Positions 22,255-30,518 of a stretch of 64,000 bases of DNA are shown here, piece by piece. This DNA comes from an uncultured Acidobacteriota bacterium (GTDB lineage: Bacteria; Actinomycetota; Acidimicrobiia; Spongiisociales; ZC4RG35). A model generated the notes under the pieces. It searched no databases, was not told the DNA's origin, and saw only the letters and a program-made list of their open reading frames with translations. The stretch lies in assembly GCA_963828465.1 (NCBI GenBank), contig CAWHEU010000022.1, positions 347,400 through 411,399 on the forward strand. Reading direction: 5' to 3'. The position numbers were made by a program, and so were the translations under genes. The first letter of the stretch is position 1, and each line of letters starts with the position of its first letter.

Positions 22255-23118
22255 ATGAGTTTTGAGACCCCGCGAGCGGTCGCTGAAGCGTTGCGCTCGG
22301 TCGATTATCTGCCCGACGACCGCATAGCGCAGGTCGTCTTTCTCGCTGACCGACTCGACAAGCCAATCCTTGTCGAGGGACCAGCAGGGGTCGGGAAGAC
22401 AGAGCTCGCCAAGTCGCTGGCCAGGGTCACCGGACGCGACCTGATCAGGCTCCAGTGCTACGAGGGCCTCGACGAGGCCAAGGCGCTCTACGAGTGGAAC
22501 TACAAGAAGCAGTTGCTCAGAATCCAGGCCGACGTCGACCACGACTGGGAGGACATCGAGCAGGACATCTTCTCGGAGGATTTCCTTCTCACCCGCCCAC
22601 TTCTCGAGGCTATTCGCTCCGAGAATCCCGTCGTGCTGCTCATCGACGAGGTGGACCGGGTCGAGGTCGAGACCGAGGCATTGCTCCTCGAGATCCTCTC
22701 CGATTTCCAGGTGTCGATCCCCGAGTTGGGGACGATGGAGGCACGAACCCAGCCGATGGTGGTTCTCACGTCCAACAACACCCGGGAGTTGAGCGAGGCG
22801 CTGAAGCGCCGCTGCCTCTTCCTCCACATCGACTACCCCGATGCTCAGAGGGAGCAGGAGATTCTCGCCGCTCGGGTTCCCGGGTTGTCCGAGCATCTGG
22901 CCGTACAGGTGGCCAAAGTGGCCCGGTCGATCCGAAGCCTCGACCTGAAGAAGGCGCCCTCCGTCTCTGAGACCATCGACTGGGCGCGGACCCTCCTCGC
23001 CCTCTCCATCGAGGATGTCGACGAGGCGATCCTGGGCGACACGCTGCACGTCCTCCTCAAGTACCAGGCCGACATCGAGAAGGCGGCCAAGGAGCTGACG
23101 TCGAGCCCTCCATCGTGA
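22255..23118 (+). CDS. MoxR-like AAA+ ATPase
   Basis: GPAGVGKTELAKSLA Walker A; CbbQ/NorQ-like. Confidence 0.85.
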   Translation: MSFETPRAVAEALRSVDYLPDDRIAQVVFLADRLDKPILVEGPAGVGKTELAKSLARVTGRDLIRLQCYEGLDEAKALYEWNYKKQLLRIQADVDHDWEDIEQDIFSEDFLLTRPLLEAIRSENPVVLLIDEVDRVEVETEALLLEILSDFQVSIPELGTMEARTQPMVVLTSNNTRELSEALKRRCLFLHIDYPDAQREQEILAARVPGLSEHLAVQVAKVARSIRSLDLKKAPSVSETIDWARTLLALSIEDVDEAILGDTLHVLLKYQADIEKAAKELTSSPPS

Positions 23119-23119
23119 C

Positions 23120-24547
23120 GTGCTCGGGATAATCACCGGTTTCATCGACGAGCTGAGGGCGGCCGGCGTCCCTGTGTCGATGGTGGAGGCCATCGACGGG
23201 ATGCGGGCAGTCGAGGCCGTTGAGATCGGCGACAGGATCGCCCTTCGCGAGACCTTGCGGGCCACCTTGATCAAGAACCTGCGTCATGAGCGCGCCTTCG
23301 ATACTGCGTTCGACGTCTATTTCTCGATGGTTCCCCAGTCCCTTTCCGAGCCAGGGGATTCCGGGGAGTCCGATTCTCAGCCGCATGCCGACCGGTCCGA
23401 TGCCCTTGAGCCGCCCCCGTTCGATATCGACGGGCTCCTCGATTCGCTCCTCGAGGCGCTGGCCGGTCTCGAGGAGGAGGCGATCCGGCGTGGCGCCCGT
23501 ACCGCGGTAGACGAGTTGGCCGGCATGGAGCCGGGGCGGCCCGTCGGCGGGACCTACTACCTGTACCGAACGCTGCGCAGGCTTGATCTGGCGGACCTCG
23601 AGGAGAGATTGATCTCTGCCCTCACCGACGATCAGGACCTGTCCGATTTCGAAAGGCGTCTCCTCCGCGAGGAGGTGGAGGCCAGGATCGAGCGTCTGCG
23701 GCAGGAAATCGAGGAAGAGATTCGACGACGACTCGTGGCCGATCGCGGTCGTGATGCGGTGGCGCGCACCCTGCGGCGCCCTCTCATCGAGGATGTCGAC
23801 CTGATGCACGCCACGACCAGCGACCTCCACGAAATGGAGGACGCCATCGGGCCCCTTACACGGAAGCTGGCAGCGCGGTTGGCCCGACGCCGTCGGATGC
23901 GGGCAGGTCGGCTCGATTTCCGTCGCACCGTGCGAAAGTCGTTGGCAACCGGCGGCGTCCCGGCAGACCCACAGTTCCGCCATCCACGGCCTCACCGGCC
24001 GGAGGTCTGGCTCCTCTGCGACATCAGCGGGTCCATGGCGACATTCTCCCGTTTCACCCTCCAGTTCACCCACGCCATGTCGACCCACTTCTCCAAGCTG
24101 CGGTCTTTCGCTTTCGTCGACACCATCGATGAAGTCAGTGACTTCTTCGGCCCGGGGGTGGATTTCGGGTCGGCATTGCGGCGGGTTACTACCGAGGCCG
24201 AGGTGGTGTGGCTGGATGGGCACTCCGATTACGGCAACTCCCTGGAGACGTTTCACACCCGGTACGGCCGTCAGCTCACCCCCCGGACGACCGTGATCAT
24301 CACAGGGGACGCCCGTAACAATTACCGGCCGCCACGGGATGGGGTGCTCGGCGACATCGCAGAGGCGTCACGTGCCTTGATCTGGCTCAACCCCGAACCT
24401 GAGGCATACTGGGACACCGGCGATTCGGCGATGTCTCACTATGCCGGCCATTGCACCTCGGTCCATGAGGTGCGGACGCTGCGCCAGCTCGAGCAATTCA
24501 TCGAGGATTTGACCCTCCCCGGGCCAAGGCTCCTCCAGAATGTCTAA
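23120..24547 (+). CDS. VWA domain protein (CoxE-like), partner of MoxR
   Basis: MIDAS DISGSM in the C-terminal VWA; immediately follows moxR. Confidence 0.8.
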   Translation: MLGIITGFIDELRAAGVPVSMVEAIDGMRAVEAVEIGDRIALRETLRATLIKNLRHERAFDTAFDVYFSMVPQSLSEPGDSGESDSQPHADRSDALEPPPFDIDGLLDSLLEALAGLEEEAIRRGARTAVDELAGMEPGRPVGGTYYLYRTLRRLDLADLEERLISALTDDQDLSDFERRLLREEVEARIERLRQEIEEEIRRRLVADRGRDAVARTLRRPLIEDVDLMHATTSDLHEMEDAIGPLTRKLAARLARRRRMRAGRLDFRRTVRKSLATGGVPADPQFRHPRPHRPEVWLLCDISGSMATFSRFTLQFTHAMSTHFSKLRSFAFVDTIDEVSDFFGPGVDFGSALRRVTTEAEVVWLDGHSDYGNSLETFHTRYGRQLTPRTTVIITGDARNNYRPPRDGVLGDIAEASRALIWLNPEPEAYWDTGDSAMSHYAGHCTSVHEVRTLRQLEQFIEDLTLPGPRLLQNV

Positions 24548-24609
24548 ACCGTGAGAGGCTTTCTGCCGATGTTGTGGCACACGCCCACCTACGGGCGATC
24601 GGACTAGAG

Positions 24610-24984
24610 GTGAAGAACATGGGCTCGCGGATACTCGTTGTCGAGGACTCGGCCGTCATCAGACGGCTCATCGAAGTCTGTCTCCGCGCTGCCGACCTCG
24701 AAATCATCACCCGTGAGGATGGCAAGACAGGGCTCGCCGCCGTTGGCTCGGAGTCACCCGACCTGGTCGTCCTGGACATCGGGCTTCCCGGCATGGACGG
24801 GTGGGAAGTGTTGGACCGCATCCGTCGGGACGAGTCGACGAGAAACATCCCGGTAGTCGTCCTCACCGCCCACGCCGAAGAGGAATCTCGACGCAGGGCG
24901 AATGAGGGCGGGGCAGATGCTTTCGTCACCAAGCCGTTCCAGCCCAACGATTTCCGCTCGACGGTCCTGTCGCTGCTCGAGTAG
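24610..24984 (+). CDS. single-domain response regulator (CheY-like receiver)
   Basis: ILVVEDS...LVVLDIGLPGMDG...VVVLTA...FVTKPF. Confidence 0.85.
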   Translation: MKNMGSRILVVEDSAVIRRLIEVCLRAADLEIITREDGKTGLAAVGSESPDLVVLDIGLPGMDGWEVLDRIRRDESTRNIPVVVLTAHAEEESRRRANEGGADAFVTKPFQPNDFRSTVLSLLE

Positions 24985-25003: not shown

Positions 25004-26032
25004 CTAAGCCGGCTCCTTCTCCAAGACCTCAGCTAGACGCTCGGCGAGGTCCACCACCCGGTTGGAGTATCCCCACTCGTTGTCGTACCACGACATAACT
25101 TTGACCAGGTTCCCGCCGAGCACCTGAGTGCCGCCGGCATCGAAGATCGACGAGTGCGGGTTCCCGATGATGTCGGTCGAGACGATCGGATCCTCCACAT
25201 ATTCCAGTATCCCGGCCATCGGGCCCTCCGCCGCGGCCCTGACCGCTGCGTTCACCTCTTCGACTGTCACATCACGGTCCAGCTCGACCACCAGGTCGAC
25301 CGTCGAACCGTCGGGCACAGGCACCCGCATCGCCATGCCGTCGAGTTTCCCGGCGAGATTGGGGATGACCTCCCCGATGGCAGCCGCGGCACCTGTGCTC
25401 GTCGGGATGATGTTCTCGGTCGCCGCCCGGCTCCGGCGTAGGTCCTGGTGCGGGACGTCGGCCAGCACCTGGTCGTTGGTGTAGGCGTGCACCGTCGTCA
25501 TCACGCCCTTGCGGATGCCGAAATTGTCGTCCAGCACCTTGGCCAGAGGCGCCAGTGAGTTCGTGGTGCACGAGGCGTTGGAGACGATGATGTCGTCGGA
25601 GTCGAGTTGGTCATCGTTGACCCCAAGGACGACTGTCTCATCCACCTTGTCCTTCGACGGGACGGTGAGAATGACTCGCTTGGCCCCGGCATCGACATGC
25701 TTCTGGAGCGTTGCGCGGTCCCTGAAGACGCCAGTCGATTCGATGACGATGTCGACATCGAGGTCCTGCCACGGCAACGAGGATGGGTCGCGCTCCATGA
25801 GCATCTTGATCTCATGCTCTCCGACCCTCATCACACCCCCGTTCACAGTGACTTCTTCCTCGAACCGTCCCATCACCGAGTCGTACTCGAGGAGGTAGGC
25901 GAGAATGTCGTCATCGGAAAGGTCGTTGATGGCGACGACTTTGAGATCCGAATTCGGCCGTGAAGCGATGATGCGAAATACCGCCCGCCCGATCCGCCCG
26001 AAGCCGTTGATTGCGACGTTGGCCATGTTCAT
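25004..26032 (-). CDS. gap: glyceraldehyde-3-phosphate dehydrogenase (type I)
   Basis: GFGRIGR; catalytic SNASCTTNSLAP and TTVHAYT present. Confidence 0.92.
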   Translation of the reverse strand: MNMANVAINGFGRIGRAVFRIIASRPNSDLKVVAINDLSDDDILAYLLEYDSVMGRFEEEVTVNGGVMRVGEHEIKMLMERDPSSLPWQDLDVDIVIESTGVFRDRATLQKHVDAGAKRVILTVPSKDKVDETVVLGVNDDQLDSDDIIVSNASCTTNSLAPLAKVLDDNFGIRKGVMTTVHAYTNDQVLADVPHQDLRRSRAATENIIPTSTGAAAAIGEVIPNLAGKLDGMAMRVPVPDGSTVDLVVELDRDVTVEEVNAAVRAAAEGPMAGILEYVEDPIVSTDIIGNPHSSIFDAGGTQVLGGNLVKVMSWYDNEWGYSNRVVDLAERLAEVLEKEPA

Positions 26033-27048
26033 TCTCCGTTGAGGTAGGTGGCGATCATCCCGGTGACCTCGACCACCCGGTTCGAGTAGCCCCAGCCGTT
26101 GTTGAACCAGGTAATGGTCTTCACCAGAGTTCCCCCTGTCACCATGGTGGCCAGACTGTCATAGACACCGGAGTGGGAGATCGATCTCACGTCTGAGGAA
26201 ACAATCGGATCTGCGACATATTCGATGATTCCCTGGTACTTGCTCTCGCACGCCGCCCTGACGAGGCCATTGACCTCTTCCTTGTCCGTAGCGCGCTCGA
26301 CGTCGACCACCATGTCCACGGTCGAGCCGTCGACTACGGGAACATTGAGGGCGACCACTGCCAGCTTGTCCTCGAGCTCGGGCAGGACCTGGGTGATGAT
26401 CTCGGCAGAATTCGTGTCGGCGGGGATGATGTTCTCCCCAGCAGCCCGGGAAGTCCGGTAGGAGTCGGTCGGTACATCTGCGAGCCGTCCTGCGTTGGAC
26501 ATCGCCTTGACCACCGTCATGTAGGCGCGCTTGACCCCGAGCTCCTCGTTGATGGTCTTCAATATCGGTGCGGCGGCGTTCGATGTGTTGGAGCCGAGCG
26601 CCACCTGGTCGACGTCCGAAGTGAGGACGTCGTCGTTTATCCCACGAAGAAGCAGAGGGATCTCACCGGGGATCTCAGGGCTCGAGGTCAAGACGACTTT
26701 CTTCGCCCCAGCCTTGAGATGCTGCTCCAGGGCTTCCTTGGTCCGATAGCGGCTGGTGGTCTCGAGCACTACATCGACGCCGAGCTCCCCCCAGTCGGCA
26801 TCGCCCGGCTCACGTGCGTTCAGCCAGGCGACATTCCTGTCGCCGTAAGACAATGTGCCGTCGGCGTAGGACACAGGTGCCGGAAAGCGGCCGTAGATGG
26901 AGTCGTACTTGAGGAGGTAGGTGAGCGCCTCGGGATCGGCGATGTCGCTGATCGCCACGATGTCGAGGTCGGCCCGATTGTGGAGGAGGCGCATCACGTT
27001 CCGCCCGATACGGCCGAAGCCCATGAGCCCTATCCGGGTTGTCATCAT
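26029..27048 (-). CDS. GAPDH-fold paralog lacking the catalytic Cys/His dyad
   Basis: GFGRIGRNV NAD motif retained. The active-site segment reads GSNTSNAAAP (no Cys), and His is replaced (TVVKAM). ATGA overlap with the gap start. The ORF-track start 27183 is probably too long; ATG 27048 has a GGAA RBS. Confidence 0.75.
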   Translation of the reverse strand: MMTTRIGLMGFGRIGRNVMRLLHNRADLDIVAISDIADPEALTYLLKYDSIYGRFPAPVSYADGTLSYGDRNVAWLNAREPGDADWGELGVDVVLETTSRYRTKEALEQHLKAGAKKVVLTSSPEIPGEIPLLLRGINDDVLTSDVDQVALGSNTSNAAAPILKTINEELGVKRAYMTVVKAMSNAGRLADVPTDSYRTSRAAGENIIPADTNSAEIITQVLPELEDKLAVVALNVPVVDGSTVDMVVDVERATDKEEVNGLVRAACESKYQGIIEYVADPIVSSDVRSISHSGVYDSLATMVTGGTLVKTITWFNNGWGYSNRVVEVTGMIATYLNGE

Positions 27049-27140
27049 CGATCGATTCCTTTCTGCGGAACTGAAACTAGTGGTCATACCCCTTGGCGAC
27101 CCAAACCGGCGCCGGTAGGTTCGGCTTCGGGAGGGTTGAG

Positions 27141-27735
27141 ATGCTGTTGGCTTTCGCCCTGAGCGCGGTGTGCCTGATGGCACCGGTCGATGGCCCGGTT
27201 GTCGCCGAATATGCGCCAGTGGGGTCTTATGGCGGCCACTGGGGCATCGACTATGCAGCCGGCTGTGGGTTCACAGGTGCGGGCACCGGCCTCGGGCCGG
27301 ATCACTTTCGCCGGCTCGGTAGCAGGGATGAGATCGGTGACCATCGAACCGGTCCCCGGGTTCAAGGTGTCGTTGAGCTATCTGTCGGAGATCGAGCAGT
27401 CGTCGGGAGCCAGCGTCGGTCGGGGTGAGGTGATCGGAAGATCCGGATCACCCCATGGCGTGAATGGGGTCCATCTGTCGACCAGAATCGACGGCGAGTA
27501 CGTCGACCCTGGGACCCAACTGGGATGTCGTGACACCGACATCACCCGAGCGCTCCGGCTGGTGACGCCTCCGGGACCGTATGCTCGCCAACGTGCGCAC
27601 CGGGATCCTGGGCGGGACGTTCGACCCGATCCATATCGCCCATCTCCACGCCGGCGAGACGGCATTGTTCGCAGCCGACCTCGACCGGGTGTTGTTCATG
27701 CCCGCTGGCGACCCATGGCAAAAAGGAGCACGTGA
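27141..27735 (+). CDS. M23 family metallopeptidase (LytM domain), +1 frameshift near 27264; the 3' end is uncertain (overlaps nadD in this frame)
   Basis: Signal peptide, GHWGIDYAAG (frame 0), then ASGRITFAGSV...HGVNGVHLSTRIDGEYVDP (frame 1). Confidence 0.65.
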
Positions 27736-29134: not shown

Positions 29135-30518
29135 TCACTGTTCCGGTGGGATGTTCTGGTTGAGCCGGAACAGGTTGTCGGGGTCGTAATGGGCCTTGAC
29201 ACGACGGAGCCGGTCCCAGGTTCCGCCCGGGTAGGCAGCCCGCACACGGTCCTGTCCCTCATCGGCGAGGAAGCCGACGTACCCGCTGAGGTCGCCGTTG
29301 CTTAGGGACTTGGCGAAGTCGGACACCCACGTCTCGCGCCGCTGGCGGTCGTCGGGGCCTTCGTAGAACGAAGCGACATTGATCATCATTTTCCGATCGC
29401 GGTGAGCGAACGCTGTGGCGTCGTTGGGGACACGAGCCATGGCTCCGCCCAGGACCCGGAGTTGGGCTACCCGCATTGGTGCATCCGAGTCTTCGAGATA
29501 ACCGAGGATGGTCTCCGCGGTTGCCGAATCGAAGGTGTCGGCCCACAACGTCCGGGCTACTGCCAGCGGTCGGTACTCCTCGTCTTCCGGTCCGTAGATC
29601 TCCGGATAGGGCATCTCTTGGACCATGTCGGCGATCGGCTGAGCGAGCCGGCGGAACCGATCCATCACCTTCTGCCCTTCGTCGATGTCGCCGCACCACG
29701 CCACCAGGGCCATGATCACGAGGCTGCCGTGGATCTCCTCTGGGACGAATGGCAGGGGCGGGCAGCTCATGACGTTGGCGATGGTCGACAGCTCTTCGGG
29801 AGCCTGCTCCGCCTCGGCGATGAACCCGACGATGGTGTCGACCGTGGCAGGGAGAACCATCATCCCGCCGACGATCCGGTCCAGCTCCTGTAGTCGAAGC
29901 TTGGAATTTGGTGGCGACCCCGAAATTGCCTCCACCTCCCCTGATGGCCCAGAAGAGGTCGGGATGAGACTCCTCGTCGGCGCGCACCACCTCGCCGTCC
30001 GCCGTGACCACCTCGGCGGCAAGTAGCGAGTCGATGGTCATGCCGTGCTTTCGCACGAGGAACCCGATTCCGCCTCCGAGGGTGATTCCGCCCAGTCCCA
30101 CCGATCCTGTGTCGCCGAGCCCGGTGGCTAGCCCGACGGCGTTGGTCTCGTTGCTGTATTCGGCGGCGGTGAGACCGGAGTCGGCCCATGCGGTCCTGGA
30201 CTCGATGTCGATCTCGAGGGACTTGAGGCTCCTCAGATCGATCACGATCCCGCCATCGGTGGTGCTGTGTCCGGCGGCGCTGTGCCCGCCACTGCGGATG
30301 GCGAGCTCGACACCGGTCTCCCGCGCGATGGTCAGGACCGTCGCTATGTCGCTGGCGTCTGCCACTTGGGCGACCGCGGCGGGGCGGACACCGTCGTAGA
30401 CGGGTATGAAGAGTCGGTGGGCGTCGTCGTATCCCTCGTCCTCGGGCGTGAAAACCTGTCCTGTCAGCGCTTGGCGGAGACGTTCGATGTCGATATTGGG
30501 TCTGGCTGCGATGGACAT
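29135..30518 (-). CDS. FAD-linked oxidase (BBE/PCMH family), +1 frameshift near 29900-29910
   Basis: N-terminal FAD-binding domain ...RSGGHS...RGGGGNFGVATKF (ORF 29259-30518); C-terminal BBE-like ...DPDNLFRLNQNI (ORF 29135-30022). Confidence 0.8.

Follow-up and report, generated by a model that had tools for sequence, protein, structure and literature searches.

A GAPDH-fold paralogue lacking the catalytic Cys/His dyad is conserved directly upstream of canonical gap in Acidimicrobiia and belongs to a larger cross-phylum subfamily

The window analyzed here is a 64,000-nucleotide (nt) stretch of contig CAWHEU010000022.1 (assembly GCA_963828465.1), recorded as coming from an uncultured Acidobacteriota bacterium and assigned by its GTDB lineage to the Acidimicrobiia. 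Two genes encoding proteins with the glyceraldehyde-3-phosphate dehydrogenase (GAPDH) fold lie in tandem on its minus strand, and we refer to the upstream gene as X and to the downstream gene, a canonical gap, as G. As a first-pass annotation had proposed, both open reading frames (ORFs) are present; both products carry the Pfam domains Gp_dh_N and Gp_dh_C (with E-values of 1.7e-29 and 2.6e-42 for X), and they are 44% identical to each other. The features of the locus are:

26029..27048, minus strand: gene X, a GAPDH-fold paralogue without the catalytic dyad, 339 amino acids (from the ORF and its translation, Pfam, and alignment)
25004..26032, minus strand: gene G, a canonical type I GAPDH, 342 amino acids (340 if the second ATG, at 26026, is used)
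27057..27062, minus strand: a Shine-Dalgarno-like AAAGGA, 8 nt 5' of the X ATG at 27048-27046 (from the sequence)
26024..26037, minus strand: the X/G coupling junction (from the sequence; the same layout is found in Acidimicrobiia loci and in six loci of other lineages)

A longer ORF for X, with a GTG start at 27183, is also available. The evidence supports the 339-residue ATG start as the likely one, because AAAGGA precedes this ATG and because orthologues and more distant relatives all start M..RIGLMGFGRIGR. At the junction, GGAGA (26037-26033) lies within the last codons of X, the stop codon of which is the TGA at 26031-26029. The ATG at 26032-26030 overlaps this stop (ATGA), and to that extent the 4-nt overlap described in the first-pass annotation is real. 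However, a second in-frame ATG (26026-26024), placed 6 nt after GGAGA, is the better-placed start; it is probably the one used for G and would leave a 2-nt spacer. Whether joined by a 4-nt overlap or a 2-nt spacer, the two genes are predicted to be tightly coupled. Promoter, terminator, and Rfam scans of the X-G locus returned nothing above background.

The product of G is an ordinary type I GAPDH. It passes the family model TIGR01534 (452.5 bits against a cut-off of 367.2), has Cys149, His176, R195, G209, R231, and E314, and reads NASCTTNSLAP and TTVHAYT at sites where X reads GSNTSNAAAP and TVVKAMS. When X was aligned residue by residue to the solved GAPDHs 1gd1 (G. stearothermophilus) and 1hdg (T. 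maritima), Asn was found at the position of Cys149 and Lys at that of His176. X resembles these type I enzymes in its two-domain fold, its length, and its S-loop, and it retains GFGRIGR, D32, S148, T150, T208, N313, and Y317. It differs from them in the loss of the dyad and, in the family alignment, in the changes R195T, G209N, R231N, D181A, Y311F, D312N, and E314G. R231N, R195T, and G209N replace residues of the anion (phosphate) sites, of which T208 is kept; R231 and R195 are reportedly, from work in the Branlant laboratory on the G. stearothermophilus enzyme, the two arginines of the substrate-phosphate site. Because Cys149, His176, R231, and R195 are lost and most orthologues are free of cysteine altogether, X is predicted to be unable to form the thiohemiacetal or thioester and to have no GAPDH chemistry; as judged from its residues, canonical thiol-based catalysis by X is excluded. 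The first-pass annotation had read the two active sites, and the retention of the NAD motif and overall length in X, in the same way. Its further suggestion, that X is a pseudo-enzyme or a protein with different chemistry, is borne out as far as the loss of canonical chemistry goes, while the term pseudo-enzyme goes a step beyond that and stays provisional, as does its proposal that X is expressed stoichiometrically with the real GAPDH.

We next compared X with the curated bacterial families. Among the NCBIfam models for GAPDH, Epd, and ArsJ-associated GAPDH, its best score was against TIGR01534 (290.5 bits), below the cut-off. It scored 248.6 against 530.55 for one Epd model (TIGR01532) and 249 against 539 for another (NF010058), and it lacks Cys149; against the ArsJ-associated model, NF033735, it reached 264.2 (cut-off 450). 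No arsJ or pdx gene lies near the pair, the neighbors of X being an M23 peptidase gene, nadD, rsfS, and gap. Assignment of X to Epd, ArsJ-associated GAPDH, or type II GAPDH was accordingly rejected on the curated cut-offs. Epd and ArsJ-associated GAPDH are, like X, diverged bacterial type I paralogues with specialized roles, and both, as far as is known, keep the Cys/His dyad. X is outside type I GAPDH in the functional sense, since it falls below the family cut-off and has neither the dyad nor the phosphate sites. We found no curated family model that describes it, and a full-text literature search, in which most subscription journals were not represented, returned no description of a bacterial Cys-less GAPDH paralogue or of a tandem gap partner. 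The first-pass view that X does not look like a known paralogue class is thus supported. In public collections, proteins of this family are named "type I GAPDH" or "GAPDH NAD-binding domain-containing protein," including Cys-less examples (P0099, P0368, and P0283).

Orthologues were sampled by a scan with one genome per species, which gave 80 loci, from which 77 full-length X proteins and 71 partner G proteins were aligned. All 80 loci come from Acidimicrobiia-type metagenome-assembled genomes (MAGs), although some of the records are labeled Acidobacteriota; several MAGs of the MFD series, for example, carry the label "uncultured Acidobacteriota." Across X proteins of 65-98% identity, N149, K176, N209 (the G209N change), and N312 are present in 77 of 77 sequences, T195 in 76, and N231 in 74, and GxGxxG, D32, and N313 are likewise invariant. 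In the G partners, all of these positions carry the canonical residue (71/71). The NAD contacts of GAPDH structures, namely G7, G9, R10, I11, D32, T96, S119, N180, N313, and Y317, are largely preserved in X: G7, G9, R10, I11, D32, N313, and Y317 are invariant (77/77), N180 is found in 74 of the 77, and T96 and S119 are retained by our reading of the alignment to 1gd1 and 1hdg. Because these dinucleotide-contact residues are kept, X has probably retained NAD(H) binding. Conservation at the former active-site and NAD positions of X is far above that of the full protein, with 18 of 26 invariant, compared with 29% of all alignment columns.

The possibility that some other Cys or His serves the active site of X, raised in the first-pass annotation, was rejected. 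X of the window has a single cysteine, C267, at a position that most orthologues fill with Val or Ile, and 50 of the 77 are entirely free of cysteine. By the Nei-Gojobori method, over 1757 pairs, the ratio of nonsynonymous to synonymous substitution (dN/dS) comes to ~0.20 in X and 0.12 in G, values that are approximate because dS is near saturation. X is under purifying selection and is a functional gene rather than a decaying one.

The arrangement of the two genes is as stable as the residues. X lies directly upstream of a canonical gap in ~160 of the 166 loci that we examined in Acidimicrobiia, other lineages, and metagenomes, and the remaining loci apparently stop too early for a call. Within Acidimicrobiia, X is followed by G on the same strand in 77 of 80 loci; the other three have no gap-like match, and we assume that the contig ends before gap. 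From other lineages we picked six loci, three that have Cys149 and three that lack it, and in all six X is followed by gap, even though the neighbors are wholly different from those in Acidimicrobiia: one context is iPGM-X-gap-pgk-fba-pfk, another is X-gap-pfk, and the rest lie among tRNA synthetase, ribosomal-protein, or unrelated genes. In one lineage, a Cys-retaining X is found within a long cluster of glycolytic and fermentation genes (L083/L084, 1-12260) that comprises acetate kinase, lactate/malate dehydrogenase, iPGM, X, gap, pgk, fba, and pfk. In 80 metagenome loci, gap is the next gene wherever there is sequence downstream of X (77/77); 57 of these 77 partners are complete and canonical, and most of the others are truncated by the contig end. 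At the junctions that we examined, the final codons of X contain a GGAGG-like motif, and the stop and start overlap or lie within ~5 nt of each other, with one exception (L159), in which the spacer is 146 nt.

In Acidimicrobiia the pair forms a two-gene unit, with M23 peptidase-nadD-rsfS upstream and divergent, and convergent genes downstream. No pgk, fba, or pfk gene lies beside the Acidimicrobiia pair, whereas such genes do accompany it in some other lineages. The sole invariant genomic partner of X is gap, and no other pathway or transporter genes are conserved beside the pair. The G partners fall into one subclade of canonical GAPDHs with the motif LTVPxKDEID (nearest representatives, P0128 and P0133). 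X and G have co-diversified: pairwise identities among X proteins follow those among their G partners across lineages (r = 0.88). The X that has diverged least shares 57% identity with the G beside it. Three apparent X-G fusions in public collections (P0124, P0271, and P0272) were discarded as natural fusions, as they are frameshift read-throughs of tandem genes in long-read assemblies and speak to gene order only. They are open to being misread as domain fusions.

To place X more broadly, we used a HMMER search of 1.84 billion cluster representatives, followed by a profile search built from 13 of the nearest relatives. Most of these nearest relatives are GAPDH-like and, as in X, Cys-less, the residue at position 149 being N, V, A, S, P, or G. 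With the 13-sequence profile, 7,977 of 8,000 scored candidates matched at E <= 1e-40, which amounts to thousands of proteins, from Acidobacteriota (Terriglobia and Thermoanaerobaculia), Desulfobacterales, and others. Relative to the partner-type GAPDH, the subfamily has a signature of N6 to M (LMGFGRIGR), T151 to S or A, R231 to N, and E314 to G (W[YF][DN]NGWGY); N6M, R231N, and E314G are all present in X of the window, and each of the two X groups has them in at least 86-100% of its members. The changes C149N, H176K, T179S, R195T, and D312N are specific to the Acidimicrobiia branch. Elsewhere the picture is different, in that Cys149 is retained by most sampled members of the subfamily (about 60-90%, depending on the sample), while R231 and E314 are lost in all of them. 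His176 is retained in all sampled members but one outside the Acidimicrobiia branch. In the 80 metagenome loci, for example, position 149 is C in 49, S in 18, N in eight, V in three, and I in one, with His176 retained throughout.

The X proteins are monophyletic and sister to the partner-type G clade in a neighbor-joining (NJ) tree rooted with partner GAPDHs. Parsimony required at least ~14 changes between Cys and non-Cys at position 149 within the X clade, with N, S, V, I, G, A, and P as replacements; this count is approximate, the trees being NJ distance trees without bootstrap support. Cys149 thus appears to have been lost about 10 or more times within the subfamily. X of the window represents the most degenerate branch of a large, cross-phylum GAPDH subfamily. 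With regard to the phylogenetic distribution of Cys-less homologues, a check proposed in the first-pass annotation, X does not stand alone but lies at the extreme of a subfamily that mostly keeps Cys149. A recent duplication of the adjacent gap was rejected as the source of X, which lies in a deep, separate clade of the NJ trees. The simplest history would be one ancient tandem duplication of a partner-type gap, after which the pair was co-inherited and the upstream copy progressively lost its catalytic features.

The predicted structure of X is that of a GAPDH. An AF2 model, made from an alignment of 110 sequences, is confident (pLDDT 90.3, pTM 0.88), in keeping with the fold assigned in the first-pass annotation, and its closest solved structures are ordinary GAPDHs (TM 0.87-0.89, 35-40% identity). 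Comparison by both structure and sequence found no PDB entry of the X type. Residues 185-206, the S-loop, have a pLDDT of <50 and are the sole segment that AF2 fails to place in the lone monomer. Of the 64 positions at which X and G are both near-invariant, 15 fall within this loop. In GAPDH tetramers the S-loop forms the inter-subunit core and touches the NAD of the neighboring subunit.

Taken together, we consider it somewhat better than even, with a probability of roughly 0.55, that X is a non-catalytic subunit that co-assembles with Gap into a hetero-oligomer. X and Gap would be made from one bicistronic mRNA by coupled translation and would assemble into a GAPDH-like hetero-oligomer, for example X2G2, in which substrate turnover would fall to the G subunits alone. 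The X subunits, having kept the dinucleotide pocket and the S-loop of the tetramer core, would play a structural or an allosteric, NAD(H)-responsive role. Three lines of evidence lead us to this model, in which NAD(H) binding by X, its physical co-assembly with Gap, and any regulatory effect are what we infer. First, a stop/start-coupled pair of paralogues has survived across phyla amid changing surroundings, which is a classic signature of the subunits of a complex. Second, the S-loop is shared with G and is left unplaced by AF2 when the chain is modeled alone. Third, since Cys149 has repeatedly been lost while the pair has been retained, the conserved role of X would need no nucleophile, a pattern that shows the selected role to be, by all appearances, non-catalytic.

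There are precedents for such an arrangement. The chloroplast GAPDH of plants, GapA/GapB (A2B2), has two paralogous subunits in one tetramer, the second of which adds regulation, and the X-G pair may be parallel to it. The plant system differs in that both subunits are catalytic and regulation is exerted through a C-terminal extension of GapB, whereas X is apparently dead and has no extension. Within eukaryotic glycolysis, the non-catalytic alpha subunits of PFP are themselves dead-paralogue subunits. Further examples of dead paralogues that assemble with an active paralogue and modulate it are the AdoMetDC prozyme of T. brucei (PMC6221367) and plant PDX1.2 (PMC6829848). X is like these proteins in having lost catalytic residues while being under purifying selection, although the prozyme and PDX1.2 belong to other enzyme families and are eukaryotic. 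By analogy, we propose a prozyme-type role as a working model for X, which would come closest to these dead paralogues in its mode of action, its likeness to GapA/GapB being looser.

Two observations weigh against a non-catalytic subunit. The strict invariance of Asn149 and Lys176 in Acidimicrobiia could equally mean that a new catalytic or ligand-binding site has arisen. Because most members of the subfamily retain Cys149 and His176, X may have started out as an enzyme, or may be one to this day. The covariation of evolutionary rate points neither way: in a set of 47 loci the X-G value exceeded that of the other gene pairs among the 10 compared (partial r 0.59), which is suggestive, but in a set of 22 loci with more controls it only ties with that of X-nadD and X-rsfS.

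The invariance of Asn149 and Lys176 would fit a new enzyme. In that case, X would be a stand-alone NAD-dependent oxidoreductase built on the GAPDH scaffold and tied to gap only by pathway and co-regulation, with Lys176, together with Asn149, Asn209, and Asn231, acting in direct hydride transfer on a non-phosphorylated substrate such as a sugar or an alcohol. Related two-domain NAD enzymes, for example those of the Gfo/Idh/MocA family, commonly use a Lys for acid/base catalysis. An abandoned pocket should drift, and yet over 65-98% identity N149, K176, N209, and N312 do not vary, and T195 and N231 hardly do; the NAD-binding residues are kept, and the loss of both phosphate-site arginines is consistent with a non-phosphorylated ligand. 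We nevertheless regard a new enzyme as unlikely. Elsewhere in the subfamily, position 149 can be Val, Ile, Gly, Ala, or Pro with His176 kept, which argues against a family-wide catalytic role, and gap is the only invariant neighbor, with no conserved pathway or transporter genes next to the pair. Moreover, stop/start coupling to a paralogue is more typical of subunits than of consecutive enzymes in a pathway.

It is also possible, but in our opinion rather improbable, that X acts apart from Gap, as a homotetramer that serves as a sensor of NAD(H) or metabolites, as a chaperone or assembly factor for Gap, or as a moonlighting binder of, for example, nucleic acid, with contact to Gap that is transient or absent. 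GAPDH proteins are well known for moonlighting, and the loss of catalysis, the retained dinucleotide pocket, and the conserved gene pair would be explained as well by such a regulator as by a subunit. The near-universal stop/start coupling, however, suggests that a fixed stoichiometry is needed, the S-loop of X is almost identical to that of its partner, and the Pfam scan found no added domain in X, whether for binding DNA or RNA or of any other kind. A separate role does have a counterpart in trypanosomes, which retain a dead, flagellum-bound GAPDH-like protein (PMC4106842). This protein, TbGAPDHL, is predicted to be inactive, may retain its dinucleotide site, and is the only predicted-inactive GAPDH-like protein that our literature search found; unlike X, it is eukaryotic, bound to the cytoskeleton, unpaired with an active GAPDH gene, and poorly conserved among species (PMC4106842). 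TbGAPDHL and X are likely to be of independent origin, since X is sister to a bacterial GAPDH clade.

A sequencing or assembly artifact, or a decaying pseudogene, is refuted: although single-base indels split two nearby genes of the window (at ~27257 and ~29900), a concern that the first-pass annotation had voiced, there are none in 25004-27048 relative to three genomes that are 91-94% identical, the same substitutions recur in 77 independent species-level genomes and in >100 protein clusters, dN/dS is 0.2, and the X ORF is full-length with a confidently predicted fold.

Of the two split genes, the first encodes an M23-family peptidase (27093-27735, plus strand) and is divided into two overlapping ORFs by a 1-nt insertion near 27257-27260. 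The insertion is absent from three related loci (L001, L003, and L005), the gene is intact in L039, and the indel probably reflects either a homopolymer error of long reads or a genuine frameshift. The second gene, for a FAD-linked oxidase (29135-30518, minus strand), is split into two ORFs by a 1-nt insertion near 29900-29904 relative to L001, L003, and L005. The M23 peptidase ORF also runs into nadD in another frame, for ~155 nt in the window (27581-27735) and ~250 nt in L039 (5206-5459). The overlap gives rise to an Arg/Pro-rich C-terminal tail that is similar in the two, and it looks like a conserved long gene overlap. On the other side of the pair, and convergent with it, is a block encoding a MoxR-type AAA+ ATPase, a VWA-domain protein, and a single-domain response regulator (22255-24984, plus strand). 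This block is kept in 37-55 of the 80 Acidimicrobiia loci, and in L039 and some others a molybdopterin oxidoreductase gene lies between it and gap. The searches also returned giant proteins with multiple GAPDH domains, which were set aside as unrelated to X; all of them keep the Cys. One of these, P0129 (2089 residues), has four GAPDH-like domains flanking a PGK-like segment and an N-terminus that resembles a signal peptide, with the catalytic Cys in all four.

GAPDH is among the most studied of enzymes, and its bacterial form is taken to be a homotetramer. A bolder version of our model, which we offer only tentatively and as something less than probable, is that in several phyla (Acidimicrobiia, Acidobacteriota, Desulfobacterota, and others) the housekeeping GAPDH would be an obligate hetero-tetramer of catalytic Gap and an ancient, NAD(H)-binding, non-catalytic paralogue that sets its allosteric or redox response, in effect a bacterial "prozyme." If so, it would have been overlooked because pipelines annotate both genes as GAPDH. 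For the same reason, namely that many X proteins are annotated as "type I GAPDH," gap counts are inflated when the metabolism of uncultured Acidimicrobiia and Acidobacteriota is reconstructed. A cross-phylum family of gap-coupled GAPDH paralogues is in any case a larger finding than the first-pass annotation had stated. If X is indeed a partner of Gap, it would be a new type of subunit at a core step of glycolysis in many soil and sediment lineages and a clean bacterial example of a pseudoenzyme partner, and the repeated loss of Cys149 would provide a natural series, from "half-dead" to "fully dead," in which to follow pseudoenzyme evolution.

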